Origin: Candidatus Babeliales bacterium
GTDB lineage: Bacteria; Babelota; Babeliae; Babelales; JBFXEV01
Direction: 5' to 3'
Length of the DNA stretch: 64,000 nt
NCBI GenBank assembly: GCA_050179755.1
Contig: JBFXEV010000001.1
Coordinates: forward strand, 745,994-809,993
Both the position numbers and the translations under genes were made by a program. Positions 29,318 to 39,023 of the stretch are shown here, in pieces; positions within the stretch are counted from its first letter, which is position 1, and each line of letters begins with the position of its first letter. A model generated the notes under the pieces. The model was not told the origin of the DNA and did not search any database. It was given only the letters and a program-made list of their open reading frames with translations.

Positions 29318-29450
29318 TGCATTTCTCTGTATAAAAAGTTAGTTTAGTTAATTTTAGTACAACATAATAATGATGTGTAGAACAATATTTTATATACTTT
29401 TGTTATTATGGTTGTGTAGAAACTTCAAAAGATTGTATGTGCAGATTTCT

Positions 29451-30217
29451 TGTAGAAGTTCCACTATTTTTTACATTAATTATCTCTGGTGCCGCTACGC
29501 GCGGCTGCGCATGCCTTTTTTTGTGCATCCTCCTTCGCCAAGGCTACGGCGGACGCAGAAAAAAGGACTCAAAAAACAAACATTTTTTTTATTAGTTGTG
29601 TAGAAAAAGTCTTAATATGTACATTTGATGTTCACTGGGCCACTGCGCGTGGCAGCGCACAAATCTTTTTGGTGGCAAAAAGATTGTGGAGAAAAACCAG
29701 TTAAGGGCGCCTTCGCCCCCTAACTACCCCATCTCCCGGTGAAGACGCCTATCTCGAATTTCATTTCATGAAATTCTCACTAGACTCCACCGTTTCGTGT
29801 AGGATTTACATTATTAAAAATGCCATAAGCAGCACTTGCGCTCTGCACTGTGCTGCAAATAACGCTAAGAACCAAGAAAACACATCACACATATTCCCTT
29901 TTAGGATTATTTTTTAACTATTCAATAACAGAAAGACCATCTCTTATATAATGTTGTTTATAATCGCAAATTTGAGGAGGGTAGTTTATGAAGTCGGCCC
30001 AGCCGGCCGTGGAGGCGGAAAACTTAATGTAAAAAAATCAGTTAAAAATCCTACTGTAAAAGTACTTTAGGTAGCCTATTTTACTCGTTACAGGCTGCTT
30101 TAGCTGGCTGTATACGTGGAAAGTTAGGCGTTACCGTTGGTCAAGCGTAGCTTGGCTCTTTTTAGTTGAGATCTTTTGGAGAAGCAAAAGATCTCATGCC
30201 CGCCGCATAGGCGCCAG
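29451..30217. repeat. Composite structured non-coding element A (arms X'+Y forward, unique spacer, arm Z reverse)
   Basis: 29451-29807 matches the reverse complement of 35492-35809; 29975-30136 matches the reverse complement of 38255-38418; begins TGTAGAAGTTCC. Confidence 0.9.
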
Positions 30218-30464
30218 AATACTTATATATGAGTGAAATAACTTATAGTCTGCCTATTTTTAAGGTGGTAGTGCCTTGAGTTCTAATAAATACCCCTAAA
30301 AAAATCTGAGTCTTCCATTATAAAATATTGCCATCTTGTCTATTTCCCTTATACTTAATATAAGCGTGAATAGTAAGTGTTTTTCAGGTGTTAAGCCCAA
30401 ACTCTTACCACACTAAAAAATAGTTTAAATTCCCCAATTTTACTACTACTTATAAGGAGGATCG

Positions 30465-30755
30465 ATGTTTCAAAAGATTCGCCCACTCCATGACCGTGTC
30501 CTTGTAGAGCGCTTGGAGCAAGAGGAAAAAACAGCCGGCGGCATTTATATACCTGATGCAGCCAAAGAAAAGGCTCAAACTGGCAAAGTAATTGCTGTGG
30601 GTAACGGCCGCGTGCTTAATGACGGCTCAGTTTCGCCATTGGCAGTTAAAGCTGGAGACGTAGTCTTTTTTGGCAAATATGCAGGCACCGAGGCTGGCAA
30701 AGAGCACGTTATTTTGCGCGAAGATGACATTCTTGGCGTTGTAGAACAAGTATAA
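30465..30755 (+). CDS. groES: Co-chaperonin GroES
   Basis: [33 protein letters not shown]. Confidence 0.99.
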
Positions 30756-30764
30756 AGGATTGCT

Positions 30765-35876: not shown

Positions 35877-36413
35877 TTAATCTTGGCGTTGAGACGCTTC
35901 ATCAAAAACAGTTTGCTCGTCACTTGATTTAGCCTTCTGCATGTGAGCCTTCTCTTGTTGAGCATCTTTGCGCTTACGAGATGTCACAGCTTCTGCAATT
36001 TGATGATAAGCAGAACCAACCGAATACTTTATAGTCCGAGCAATACCTTCTCGTTCTTTCCAAGCAGTCTGAGCATTTTTTGCTGTTTCTTGTGCCATAG
36101 TTTGAGCATTTTCAACGGTCATTGCATCTTTATGTTCCCAAGCAATAAACCCAACAAGCGCAAGAGCAACAAGGCGAGCAGACATTGGCCAACCGGGTTT
36201 TGCAGATTGTTTTTTTATTGCAGCATGTAGATGTTCTCTTGCAGTGTGAATTTGTTTATTGGCGGCATTAATTTGTTCGCTTAATGCGTGATATTTGCTA
36301 TTCAGTTCCCGAATGCCGGCTTCAATTTTTGCAGTAGATTGTTCTGTTCCTGTTCCAAATGCCAGTGTTGAAGCGCAACACATGAGTAATGTTAAATGTT
36401 TAAGAGTAAGCAT
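35877..36413 (-). CDS. Exported coiled-coil/TM hypothetical protein
   Basis: Signal peptide, coiled coil, one TM helix; AGGAG SD. Confidence 0.7.
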   Translation of the reverse strand: MLTLKHLTLLMCCASTLAFGTGTEQSTAKIEAGIRELNSKYHALSEQINAANKQIHTAREHLHAAIKKQSAKPGWPMSARLVALALVGFIAWEHKDAMTVENAQTMAQETAKNAQTAWKEREGIARTIKYSVGSAYHQIAEAVTSRKRKDAQQEKAHMQKAKSSDEQTVFDEASQRQD

Positions 36414-36483
36414 GATGCTCCTAGATGTTGTTATAAAATTGAAATTATAGCTTAGATTAACGATTTTGAGCTATTTTTCAACT

Positions 36484-38022
36484 TTAGAACGTGCCACCAA
36501 ATTTACCCCAAACTCCCCATTGAGTAAATGCTGTATTGAGTGTAGGGAATTCGCCAAATGCACCAAGCCCTGCAAAGAATGAGAAATATTTGCCTTCTGC
36601 CTTAAAGCCCACAGCAACGTGTGCACGATTAACCACTGCAGCACGAGCGCCACCAGAATAAAAATCTAAGTCTTGCCATCTGATAGGCACAAAGACCAAA
36701 TTACCATCTTCATCAACGTCATTATCTGCGAGGCAACTTATAGTGCTTTCACTTGCGGTAGGGCACACGGGCACGCAATTAACTTCAAGACCATCGGTGC
36801 CGGGCCCACCAACGCCTGCAAAACCAAATTCCTCAAGCCAAGGTTCTTTAAGGCGTGGCCACTCCGTGCTTTGCGCGTAACAACTATAGCCAAGTTGCAA
36901 TGCTACAAATTCATTATAAAATCGAAAACCGCTTGAGCCTTCAAAAAGGCTAAATGGTTCAGTGCGCACTCTGCGCGTGAGCACGTTTGCCGCTGGAATG
37001 CCACACTCACCATATATGCTATTAACCAGCATGTAGCGAGACCATGGCTTAAAGCGCACGTCAAAAGTGCGGTGTTGCGTTGCTCTAAATAAATACGTAT
37101 GTTCAAGATCTACGTAAAATGAAAATATGCGGCAATCGGTAGTGCAATTGAGCGGCATTTGAAAATTAAAACCAGAACCCATACCCCAGTGGTTATTATG
37201 CCCTAAAAAAGGATCAAATAAAAATTCTGCTTTTGCGGATTTTGCGGTGGGAATTAAGAGCATTGAATAGACGCCAAGCTCAAAACCATCATCTTTTAAA
37301 AAGTAGCTGCCGAGCCTGAAAATTATTTCAGGAACAGACGTAACACTTTCAGACTGTGTAGGGATTTTAGAAAAAAGAAGTTCAGGTCGATTGAAGGCTT
37401 GTAATAATGGCAGTGGTGCTCTGAAATTCATATCGTTTTTAACATGTTGCACTGGCAATTGAAATGAAAAATAAAAAGAAGATAACAACCAATTATCAGT
37501 AAATGGTTTAAAATCCTGTTGATATTCAAGATACGCTGCCCATTGCATTTGCTCTGGTTCAAGTGAAAGTACGCCTTCAAAATTTGGCCCTAATCCTAAC
37601 CATTCGGCACGTACGTCACGATTGATTGGTCTAACATCATCGCCTTTTACGGTGATGATGTTTTTAGGTTTTACATTAAAGTCTGAATCAAGTACATCAG
37701 TTCGTTCAGGCAAACCAAAATATCTGCCAACATGTTCTGAGCGATGTGCTTTTTGATACATACCCACCACTTGAAAAAAGCCGCCGTAGCAGTTTTTATT
37801 TGCCATAAATTCATGTGCTAAAAATTGGCGGGCTTCTATTAAGGTATATGCAGGGCGTGTAAAGAGGAATGTTTGGCTAAATTTTTCGTGTTTGCCGCTG
37901 ACTTTATATTTAAACAAGTATTGAGATGTTGGCAAAAGTTGATCTGCTATGATATTAAATGAAAACATGCAGAGTAAGGCACAGAGGCTGAACTTTTTCA
38001 TATGATCCTTTTTTTTCTTCAT
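36484..38022 (-). CDS. Probable outer-membrane beta-barrel protein (paralog of 13809-15416)
   Basis: Signal peptide; C-terminal WGVWGKFGGTF beta-signal-like end with terminal Phe; LIPTA and GHNNHWGMG motifs. Confidence 0.72.
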   Translation of the reverse strand: MKKKKDHMKKFSLCALLCMFSFNIIADQLLPTSQYLFKYKVSGKHEKFSQTFLFTRPAYTLIEARQFLAHEFMANKNCYGGFFQVVGMYQKAHRSEHVGRYFGLPERTDVLDSDFNVKPKNIITVKGDDVRPINRDVRAEWLGLGPNFEGVLSLEPEQMQWAAYLEYQQDFKPFTDNWLLSSFYFSFQLPVQHVKNDMNFRAPLPLLQAFNRPELLFSKIPTQSESVTSVPEIIFRLGSYFLKDDGFELGVYSMLLIPTAKSAKAEFLFDPFLGHNNHWGMGSGFNFQMPLNCTTDCRIFSFYVDLEHTYLFRATQHRTFDVRFKPWSRYMLVNSIYGECGIPAANVLTRRVRTEPFSLFEGSSGFRFYNEFVALQLGYSCYAQSTEWPRLKEPWLEEFGFAGVGGPGTDGLEVNCVPVCPTASESTISCLADNDVDEDGNLVFVPIRWQDLDFYSGGARAAVVNRAHVAVGFKAEGKYFSFFAGLGAFGEFPTLNTAFTQWGVWGKFGGTF

Positions 38023-38134
38023 AAGGTGAGTACGTGATATTAGCTTAGTGTCATTTTAGGTGATTGCCAAGTGCACGTTGTTTTACTAGAAGTTTGATTT
38101 TTCGATTTATTTTTTGATTTACGAAATAATTTTA

Positions 38135-39023
38135 TGTAGAAATTTATTCTTTCATTTTATGTAGCTAGCGCTGAGCGCCTGCCCGGCGAGGGCAAACTGT
38201 TTTGCTTGCCCAAAACAGTATTGACCAAAAGGGCACCAGCTCGCGCTGGGGCACCGGTGACGCCTAACTTTCCACGTATACAGCCTGCTAAAGCAGTCTG
38301 TAACGAGTAAAATAGGCTACCTAAAGTACTTTTACATTTAGGATTTTTAACAGACTTTTTTACAATCAGTTTTTCGCCTCAAACGGCCGGCTGGGCCGAC
38401 TTCATAAACTACCCTCCTTACTTTTCTCTTTACAGTGACATAGATGATTCATATTCAAAAGATTATTATGGCTTAAGATATGCACGGTTCATATGTGGTA
38501 ACATTGGTGGACTGCAATAGCGTGATGCTAAGTGAGCTATTCAGCTGCGTATCCCATTTTTAGGATAAAAAATATAAATTAACTAAAACAGGTGGATGTG
38601 TTTTTGTTTATTCTTGGACTAACATATTTTTGTAGCGCACCAGCGTAAGCGTTGTATAACATTCTATTGATAAGAAGCATCCCTTGAGGAGACCCTTAGA
38701 ACTTTTTTAAAGGTTCGCTGGGGGAGTTTATCAGCGCGGAGATACATAAGAACATCCAGCCTACGCCAATCCAGGCGTTCAGTTTGGTTGGTTACGGCGG
38801 ATAGGCTTGTTCTAAATGAAAAATTTTATTAGTGGTTCCTATGCGCGCTGTGTGCATACCTCGTCGTGAAACGACGTGAGGTATAGCGCTCAGCGATTGA
38901 GCGGAATAGTCCAGCAGAATGCTGGTGCTTTTTTGCGTCCTTTTTTTGCACAAAAAAAGGCATGCGCCGCCGCGCGTAGCGGCACCTGTGATTATGCTTT
39001 TAAATATTCAGTGGAACTTCTAC
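38135..39023. repeat. Composite structured non-coding element C (arm Z forward, spacer with nested REP, arm X reverse)
   Basis: Starts TGTAGAA and ends GGAACTTCTAC; arms match elements A and B; REP-like hairpin at 38750-38812. Confidence 0.9.

Follow-up and report, generated by a model that had tools for sequence, protein, structure and literature searches.

Elements A, B and C and their arms

The window analysed here is a stretch of 64,000 nucleotides (nt), C1:745994-809993, from the genome of a member of the Babeliales (G000; 1.53 Mb in a single contig, C1), and it contains three elements, A, B and C, each built from structured arms placed around a centre. A congener, G001, was used for comparison. 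Common to the arms is a terminal module that had escaped an earlier note on this DNA: a head in which a pseudoknot is combined with a triple helix, followed by a hairpin and a tail of 38-41 nt. The parts of the three elements are given below, where the strand of an arm is the one that folds (read from centre to end, i.e. outward), together with two neighbouring genes that we take, from their protein sequences, to be groES and groEL.

29376-29450: tandem of two stubs of tail size (39 and 36 nt), both starting with TAGAA (TAGAA 38, 74 and 113 nt from hairpin 1)
29451-29598, minus strand: A, short head-only arm S (tail, hairpin 1, knot hairpin)
29599-29812, minus strand: A, arm Y, full terminal module, knot head at ~29655-29700
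29813-29967: A, AT-rich centre, parts of it common to the elements at C1:1021k and C1:700k (BLASTN)
29968-30250, plus strand: A, arm Z, comprising bodies Z2+Z1, a head at ~30140-30215 and a tail whose degenerate end is near 30247
30465-32399, plus strand: groES-groEL, context outside the element, collinear in G001
35194-35232: single tail-sized stub (39 nt) ahead of B, 81% like the inner stub of A over 42 nt
35233-35435, minus strand: B, arm X; pairing of the knot loop (35306-35309) with 35329-35332, third strand at 35323-35328
35436-35481: B, short centre, copied with both arms at C1:1263k (373 nt, 92%)
35482-35700, plus strand: B, arm Y, full terminal module
35701-35809, plus strand: B, short head-only arm S, outside arm Y
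38135-38425, minus strand: C, arm Z; pairing of the knot loop (38205-38211) with 38231-38235, third strand at 38227-38230
38426-38821: C, centre, with a V-type arm body remnant (38697-38752) and then a small hairpin repeat
38822-39023, plus strand: C, arm X, full terminal module

A repeat finder applied to the window recovered the three elements and the inverted arm pairs where the earlier note had placed them: arm X at 35234-35435 and 38822-39023 (202 nt, 94% identity), arm Y at 29632-29817 and 35482-35667 (186 nt, 95%), and arm Z, in three pieces, at 29968-30147 and 38244-38425 (79-88%). GTAGAA or TTCTAC stands at five of the six outer ends, as had been noticed, with further copies at 29377, 29416, 29600 and 35195. 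Two boundaries have to be moved: what had been taken for a stub at 29599 marks where a Y arm truly ends, behind a short head-only arm, an arrangement in which B ends likewise, and the right end of A, put at 30217, is instead a degenerate end near 30247. The note had seen neither a transposase nor a long open reading frame (ORF) inside; a single frame of at least 80 aa touches any of the elements, 81 aa long and situated over the X arm of C.

On either side of A, B and C, contigs assembled from short reads (three runs of one study, possibly the source sample) continue from unique flanking sequence into the arms and show 0 differences; they break within the repeated arm cores, and none of the listed pieces spans a whole element.

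From the centre outwards, an arm is composed of a variable multi-hairpin body, an H-type pseudoknot, a G·A-closed hairpin (hairpin 1) and an AT-rich tail ending in TTCTA, the whole measuring ~150-300 nt and containing several hairpins plus the knot. TAGAA lies 38-41 nt from hairpin 1 at all 31 ends, while identity among 11 X arms falls from 91% in the body and 88% in the head to 62% in the tail, which means that the length of the tail is conserved and its sequence is not. At 3 of 26 ends a second TAGAA occurs at about double the distance, and one of these has another at triple. Read outward, ..TTCTA is present at 28/31 arms, and the bases just outside it are biased towards G at -1 and T at -2 (21/31 each). 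The terminal tetramer is GTAG at 21 ends, TTAG at 6, ATAG at 2, and TGAG and AGAG at one each. GTAG had been likened to the tag of REP hairpins recognised by RAYT proteins, a comparison that does not survive, the tetramer being found at 21/31 ends only, 38-41 nt away from the first hairpin and on the poorly folding strand.

The arm tails (e.g. 38990-39023) also carry an imperfect dyad, TGTA ... TACA, ~19 nt apart. An outward sigma-70 promoter in the tail was considered and found weak (-35 score 0.97 versus -0.72±0.43 in shuffled sequences, last base of the -10 box T in 12/30), and a promoter scan listed no outward sigma-70 site at the arm ends in the window. A resemblance of the arm ends to Xer/dif sites was likewise unsupported, with no convincing dif site. 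Finally, small GC-rich hairpin repeats, of a type seen beside small GIY-YIG genes, occur at 29528-29558, 34422-34470 and 38755-38800 and insert into arms, the knot loop included. The first of these breaks the loop of arm S in A, and C1:1263445-1263570 carries the same insertion.

The pseudoknot and triple helix of the arm head

The head follows the order a, T3-6, linker, b, a', b' from centre to end, where b and b' form a stem rich in T/A and the loop a' is the partner of a. Its first loop is a pyrimidine strand that mirrors the purine strand of the second stem, giving T·A-T and C·G-C triples. Across 39 distinct heads out of 58 parsed, the knot stem a/a' has a mean of 3.46 Watson-Crick pairs, against 1.83±0.18 when the partners are shuffled (at most 2.64 in 10,000), and it reaches at least 3 bp in 33/39 heads, where 11.6 would be expected.

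A pattern drawn from arm Z of C and its relatives, fixing 23 common bases and leaving the paired positions free, was found at no fewer than 121 metagenome and 2 viral loci with G+C contents from 28 to 67%. Among the 123 matches listed, the loop and its partner are coupled as C-G in 73 and T-A in 50, with 0 discordant. The third strand behaves in the same manner: over five free positions in 106 distinct heads it gives 436 mirror matches versus 278±9, and at its position 4 the two tracts read A/A in 50 and G/G in 47 of the 106. T·A-T and C·G-C triples would require just such a mirror match, judging from the triplex geometry set out in the accessible part of PMC4666352. G occurs in both tracts of 64 heads, 51 of which are asymmetric, and here mirror symmetry fits 48/51 and direct duplication 0/51; because template switching or duplication cannot yield a mirror match, the fold is under selection. 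The heads of G000 have 3-7 mirrored bases each.

Owing to the shared 23-base pattern and the same fold, the distant metagenome and viral heads are likely to share descent with the arms of G000. Named carriers are Ilyobacter polytropus DSM 2926 (NC_014633.1), with 6 identical heads, and Pseudoalteromonas. A second, facing head lies within 1.2 kb at 9/62 long metagenome loci, and no ORF recurs between the two. At two tertiary contacts, bases covary one by one in genomes that are unrelated, and they do so on a single strand only.

In a covariance model of the hairpins 96.5% of cells are paired and 101 are compensatory, against 23±5 in shuffles, figures that come from related sequences in an alignment fitted to the structure. 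The model matches 16 of 149 genomes of the phylum (G000 included), spread over three other families, many of the matches weak; at the loci listed from these families the arms stand singly, in inverted pairs or in larger clusters, with no gene between them and with TAGAA missing from the corresponding position.

Several features indicate which strand folds. On the outward strand, mismatched pairs are G·T far more often than A·C, both in Babeliales (32 versus 6) and in the metagenome heads (36 versus 1, of 44), and an unconstrained scan found hairpin-1 loops of the form G...A on this strand in 35 arm matches. Together, the G·T excess and the G...A loops imply that only one strand folds, so that in a doublet each strand bears one folded arm at its 3' side. 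Triloops in the Babeliales arm bodies are GNA in 29/32 cases on the folding strand and in 0 on the opposite one, and GNRA accounts for 1/13 tetraloops; d(GNA) loops are described as a stable DNA motif in the accessible parts of PMC3201870 and PMC13037366.

Viral contigs, many of them metagenome-assembled genomes of giant viruses, contain intergenic hairpins in many copies, in which a T/A stem is followed by a short linker and then by an A-tract. They have the same mirror geometry but no knot, and are possibly a minimal triplex. As relatives of the arms these giant-virus and phage hairpins were rejected (best model E=0.008 over 80 of 84 loci), leaving them analogues at most.

Copies, combinations and turnover

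The earlier note had counted each arm type just twice. Genome-wide BLASTN and module mapping instead reveal 21 intergenic loci in G000, of which A, B and C are three, and at least six arm types (X, Y, Z, W, V and U, with an additional type Q in G001). A structural descriptor gives 33 matches in the genome, compared with 8 in reversed and 2 in shuffled sequence, and these counts, along with the BLAST E-values, exclude chance. The classifiable pairs of G000 are X-W (5, one X truncated), X-Z (3), X-Y (2), Y-Z (2) and one each of X-V, Y-V, Z-V and W-W, the remaining loci being one U-U2 pair, two singlets and two pairs in which an arm is unclassified. Some arms stand by themselves or in tandem, but most form inward-facing pairs with an unlike partner, and hybrids exist in which a Z head sits on an X body or a Y head on a Z2 body. 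Pairing had been described as occurring in every combination (Y-Z, X-Y, Z-X), which is not supported, pairs of like with like being scarce: 1 of 20 classifiable doublets (16 from G000 and 4 from G001; hybrids, singlets and unclassified pairs left out) versus 4.4 expected (p=0.04), a hint rather than a firm result since the copies are not independent. By gene context the 21 loci are 9 divergent, 8 tandem and 4 convergent, with 31% divergent expected from spacer length.

The spacers of the elements, said to be largely unique, are so within the window but not in the genome as a whole. Positions 29554-29888 of A are 98% identical to C1:1021362-1021696 (335 nt), and 35265-35634 of B are 92% identical to C1:1263025-1263392 (373 nt), the centre here having been copied with its arms.

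BLASTN of B among 40 relatives found it in G001 only, plus one 29-nt match; a strict genus-type pattern had 0 viral, 0 metagenome and 2 genome loci; and arm Z against plasmids gave nothing at E<0.9.

G001 has 17 matches to the covariance model and is collinear with G000 over the window. An inversion across groESL and the downstream genes, which the earlier note had thought possible from the arm pairs, is not borne out either by this collinearity or by the joints, none of the 15 listed (of 22) being strand-changing. What the note had proposed beyond this, an uncatalogued, modular REPIN- or MITE-like family of structured elements with shuffled arms (MITEs are miniature transposable elements that have inverted repeats), is supported at site A upstream of groES, which is Z-X in G001 and S+Y-Z in G000. 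Of the other two syntenic sites in G001, that of B is empty and that of C is taken by a gene (244 aa, with a DnaJ-like domain at its end).

Elsewhere, 8/16 G001 loci lie beside an orthologue of a gene flanking a G000 element (three matched on one side only), mostly with other arms than in G000, and the other 8 have no G000 element beside the orthologous genes. Such sharing of sites is far above chance, given 21 elements among ~840 spacers, and most neighbouring genes have only ~66-73% nucleotide identity between the two genomes. Element sites are long-lived while their arm contents change. As for target duplication, TA is possible, a longer direct repeat is present at 0/7 doublets, and the spacers of G001 are too diverged for empty-allele comparison.

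Explanations, candidate enzymes and known systems

We favour, at about even confidence, a family of non-autonomous mobile repeats in which the unit is the single arm and the folded single-stranded DNA (ssDNA) is recognised in trans. This reading sets out from modular arms, a selected, strand-specific knot and triplex, a length-fixed tail, tandem heads and stubs, and the gain, loss and re-arming of elements. The head would fold when the DNA is transiently single-stranded, and a protein in trans, perhaps no longer in the genome, would bind it and cut or join a fixed distance away at the tail end, much as Ssn is modelled to bind a hairpin and cut in its variable flank (PMC11893778, accessible part). 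Spacers rich in AT would receive copies of arms or whole doublets, often at an arm already there or next to it, where insertion would leave tandem heads and 36-39-nt stubs behind. Recombination or conversion through the common head may swap bodies, and pairs of like arms, which would be long palindromes, would be lost; X-Y, Y-Z and Z-X would then be three draws from the arm pool. More tentatively, and with doubt outweighing belief, one may envisage a cross-phylum class in which an ssDNA pseudoknot-triplex forms the recognition end, the enzyme measures ~39 nt, arms move singly and doublets are combinatorial. If true, this would amount to comparative proof of a DNA triplex-pseudoknot selected in vivo and would point to a structure-specific nuclease or recombinase.

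A number of observations pull the other way. Reverse transcriptase (RT), IS110, DDE_3 (IS630-type DDE) and DUF559 were not found in 5/5 arm-bearing genomes tested, a search in which other DDE families were not included; no head at E<0.1 lies within the flanks retrieved for 47 Y1, GIY-YIG or TnpB loci; and no gene family recurs near the 123 viral and metagenome heads or near 22 Babeliales loci. Outside this genus neither TAGAA nor the tail is conserved, no empty allele is close enough to reveal an insertion point (the G001 spacers being too diverged), and the adjacency of half of the G001 loci to the same gene fits old inherited sites equally well. Pseudoknot-triplexes and G·U pairs are, moreover, classic features of RNA. 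The 29 GNA loops stem from few homologous positions, their bias is weaker in metagenome bodies (16 versus 9), and most are closed by T-A, A-T or G-C and not by the stabilising C-G (cf. PMC3201870, accessible part). The favoured pyrimidine-motif triplex can also form in RNA (PMC4666352, accessible part). On balance, from the sequence evidence, the folded molecule seems appreciably more likely to be DNA than RNA.

No partner enzyme was found. Y1 genes are present in 5/9 arm-bearing genomes and GIY-YIG matches in 9/9, but none of the tyrosine recombinase, Y1_Tnp or GIY-YIG genes is flanked by heads, and so they were rejected as partners in cis or genome-wide; ORF clustering around 145 loci produced larger clusters that were only translations of the repeat itself. 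The earlier note had envisaged a Y1/RAYT HUH gene flanked by the arms. The single Y1 gene of G000 (C1 ~216.9-217.3 kb; L001:1426-1857, minus strand) has no adjoining arms and encodes a 143-aa IS200-TnpA-like protein that lacks the first HUH His and the catalytic Tyr, as do its G001 orthologue and 6 database homologues. It looks like a domesticated, dead transposase, and was rejected as a general partner, Y1 being missing from 4/9 arm-bearing genomes. The protein has an N-terminal CxxC and an acidic tail, its 6 homologues are 73-87% identical, and its gene is kept upstream of a nucleotide-transporter-like gene in both G000 and G001.

Besides two Xer-like proteins, G000 encodes a third tyrosine recombinase (C1:1260709-1261644), conserved in G001 and near the GC-skew terminus (~1,264.6 kb), around which no classical dif site was found. 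It lies 1.3 kb from an element in G000, but the G001 locus has no arm match, and it too was set aside as the partner. Two solitary TnpB genes (C1:391864-392979 and 1420898-1422034), not found in four other genomes tested, have their own ends and no arms, which speaks against the arms as TnpB/IscB omega-RNA. In G001 a long tandem array of hairpin repeats stands behind a small GIY-YIG gene (L137:1750-2300).

The strongest alternative, though in our estimate an improbable one, is that of arms acting as structured RNAs, with transcription running outwards from the AT-rich centre and a telomerase-like pseudoknot triple helix near the 3' end, which would serve as a stability element or protein scaffold; copies would be spread by conversion or an RNA intermediate. 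RNA triple-helix pseudoknots such as those of the telomerase core and SAM-II are H-type knots in which loop 1, made of pyrimidines, runs along a stem 2 rich in A, and the arm head has this very topology. The outward strand folds better for 8/10 arms under RNA parameters, and the hairpin-1 loops are closed by G...A; the G·T asymmetry, too, favours the pyrimidine-motif strand, that motif being the only triplex type that RNA can form according to the accessible part of PMC4666352. Yet GNA triloops dominate while GNRA tetraloops are rare, so that the loop types lean to DNA, and the knot sits in a multicopy, volatile repeat whose orientation to neighbouring genes is mixed. The inner ends, furthermore, show no promoter-like mark (14 sites versus 25.6 expected), RT was missing from all 5 genomes tested, and there is no Rfam family: Rfam 15 gave no match at gathering score (best E 0.47 and 0.81), 20 of the 123 viral and metagenome loci, compared with Rfam, yielded only a tRNA and a cobalamin riboswitch, and arm W, tried as TwoAYGGAY, had no Rfam match. 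The Rfam match that the earlier note had named as refuting its reading did not appear.

Less likely again, the arms could be folded single-strand sites maintained by the host, for priming or restart or as recombination hot spots, and homogenised by conversion with no mobilising enzyme. This would suit the strict tertiary covariation, the missing enzyme in cis and the 8/16 G001 loci that stay beside the same gene despite the divergence of their neighbours. Parallels are available in the GNA mini-hairpins at phage and plasmid priming sites (PMC13037366) and in BoxC/TMECO, which likewise lacks a mobility gene and joins unlike units into inverted pairs (PMC4666352), both as given in the accessible parts of these papers. 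It accords poorly with a model that matches only 15/148 other genomes of the phylum, with half of the loci being unshared, and with recent copies of 92-98% identity and tandem heads and stubs typical of insertion.

We think it slightly more doubtful still that the elements are MITEs of a TA-duplicating DDE transposase (IS630/IS5 type), with the 39-nt tails as terminal inverted repeats (TIRs), the terminal TA as the duplication and the folds as passengers. The outward ..TTCTA and the bias outside it do resemble a target preference, and whole doublets have been copied with their centre, but although the ends are inverted copies, no part of the arm is less conserved than the tail, where a TIR would show the opposite, and other families have not kept it. 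There are also singlets and tandem heads, the 7 doublets checked are flanked by no longer direct repeat, and no DDE_3 gene was found in the 5 genomes. Assembly artefact or chance is next to inconceivable, for although contigs break inside the arm cores, span no whole element among the listed pieces and come from runs that are perhaps the source sample, they enter the arms with 0 differences across the flank junctions of A, B and C, the copies differ by 5-25%, and G001 has the family plus an element at site A, which also answers the misassembly that the earlier note had raised against itself.

Compared with known systems, the arms would be a variant of intergenic mosaic or triplex repeats with an inferred mechanism. 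The closest described element is BoxC/PIT/TMECO, which, in the accessible part of its account (PMC4666352), resembles the arms in being intergenic and dispersed, in combining a hairpin with a mirror third strand, and in its lack of strand bias, variable copy number, absence of a mobility gene nearby and unlike inverted pairs A+B. It differs in being a 34-37-nt, G/C-rich, purine-motif (class II) triplex, and the same part of the account does not use the word 'pseudoknot'. The arm head is A/T-rich, uses a pyrimidine-motif strand, is closed by a pseudoknot and stands within modular arms of 150-300 nt with a measured tail. Whether bacteria form and use intrastrand triplexes has been asked since BoxC/PIT, where the DNA folded in vitro, in vivo footprinting was negative and no function was found, as far as the accessible text relates (PMC4666352).

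REP/BIME/REPIN sequences with RAYT, and TIRtrons, share with the arms inverted doublets, unlike partners, singlets, clusters and lineage-specific gain and loss (PMC3733652, accessible part). Arms are 5-10x longer than the REP unit, a 20-40-nt palindrome, and have a tertiary fold; GTAG is not conserved and does not stand at the foot of the hairpin, the end motif lies at the 3' side of the folded strand, and no tyrosine transposase gene is flanked by arms. In the Ssn (GIY-YIG) system with its NTS/SRM hairpins, a protein binds a folded single-stranded repeat and cuts the variable flank (PMC11893778, accessible part), and GIY-YIG matches are found in all nine arm-bearing genomes tested, their small hairpins inserting into arms; Ssn repeats, however, are ~30 nt, and no examined GIY-YIG gene is flanked by knot heads. 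Bacterial MITEs such as RUP, ERIC and Correia are also non-coding, 200-900 nt long, with inverted ends and strong secondary structure (PMC3184786, accessible part), whereas the ends of the arms are their least conserved part and one arm can replace another or exist singly. No description of the fold or family was found in the literature searched, which did not extend to subscription papers and several supplements, nor is either described in the accessible part of PMC12513839.

The window shows knot heads combined into modular mobile elements, and in Ilyobacter polytropus DSM 2926 there is a cultured carrier in which the question of DNA or RNA and the partner protein are directly testable. Apart from the elements, the window also encodes large paralogous, probably exported proteins, which are arranged in pairs at 41388-45770 and ~50.5-58.7 kb.

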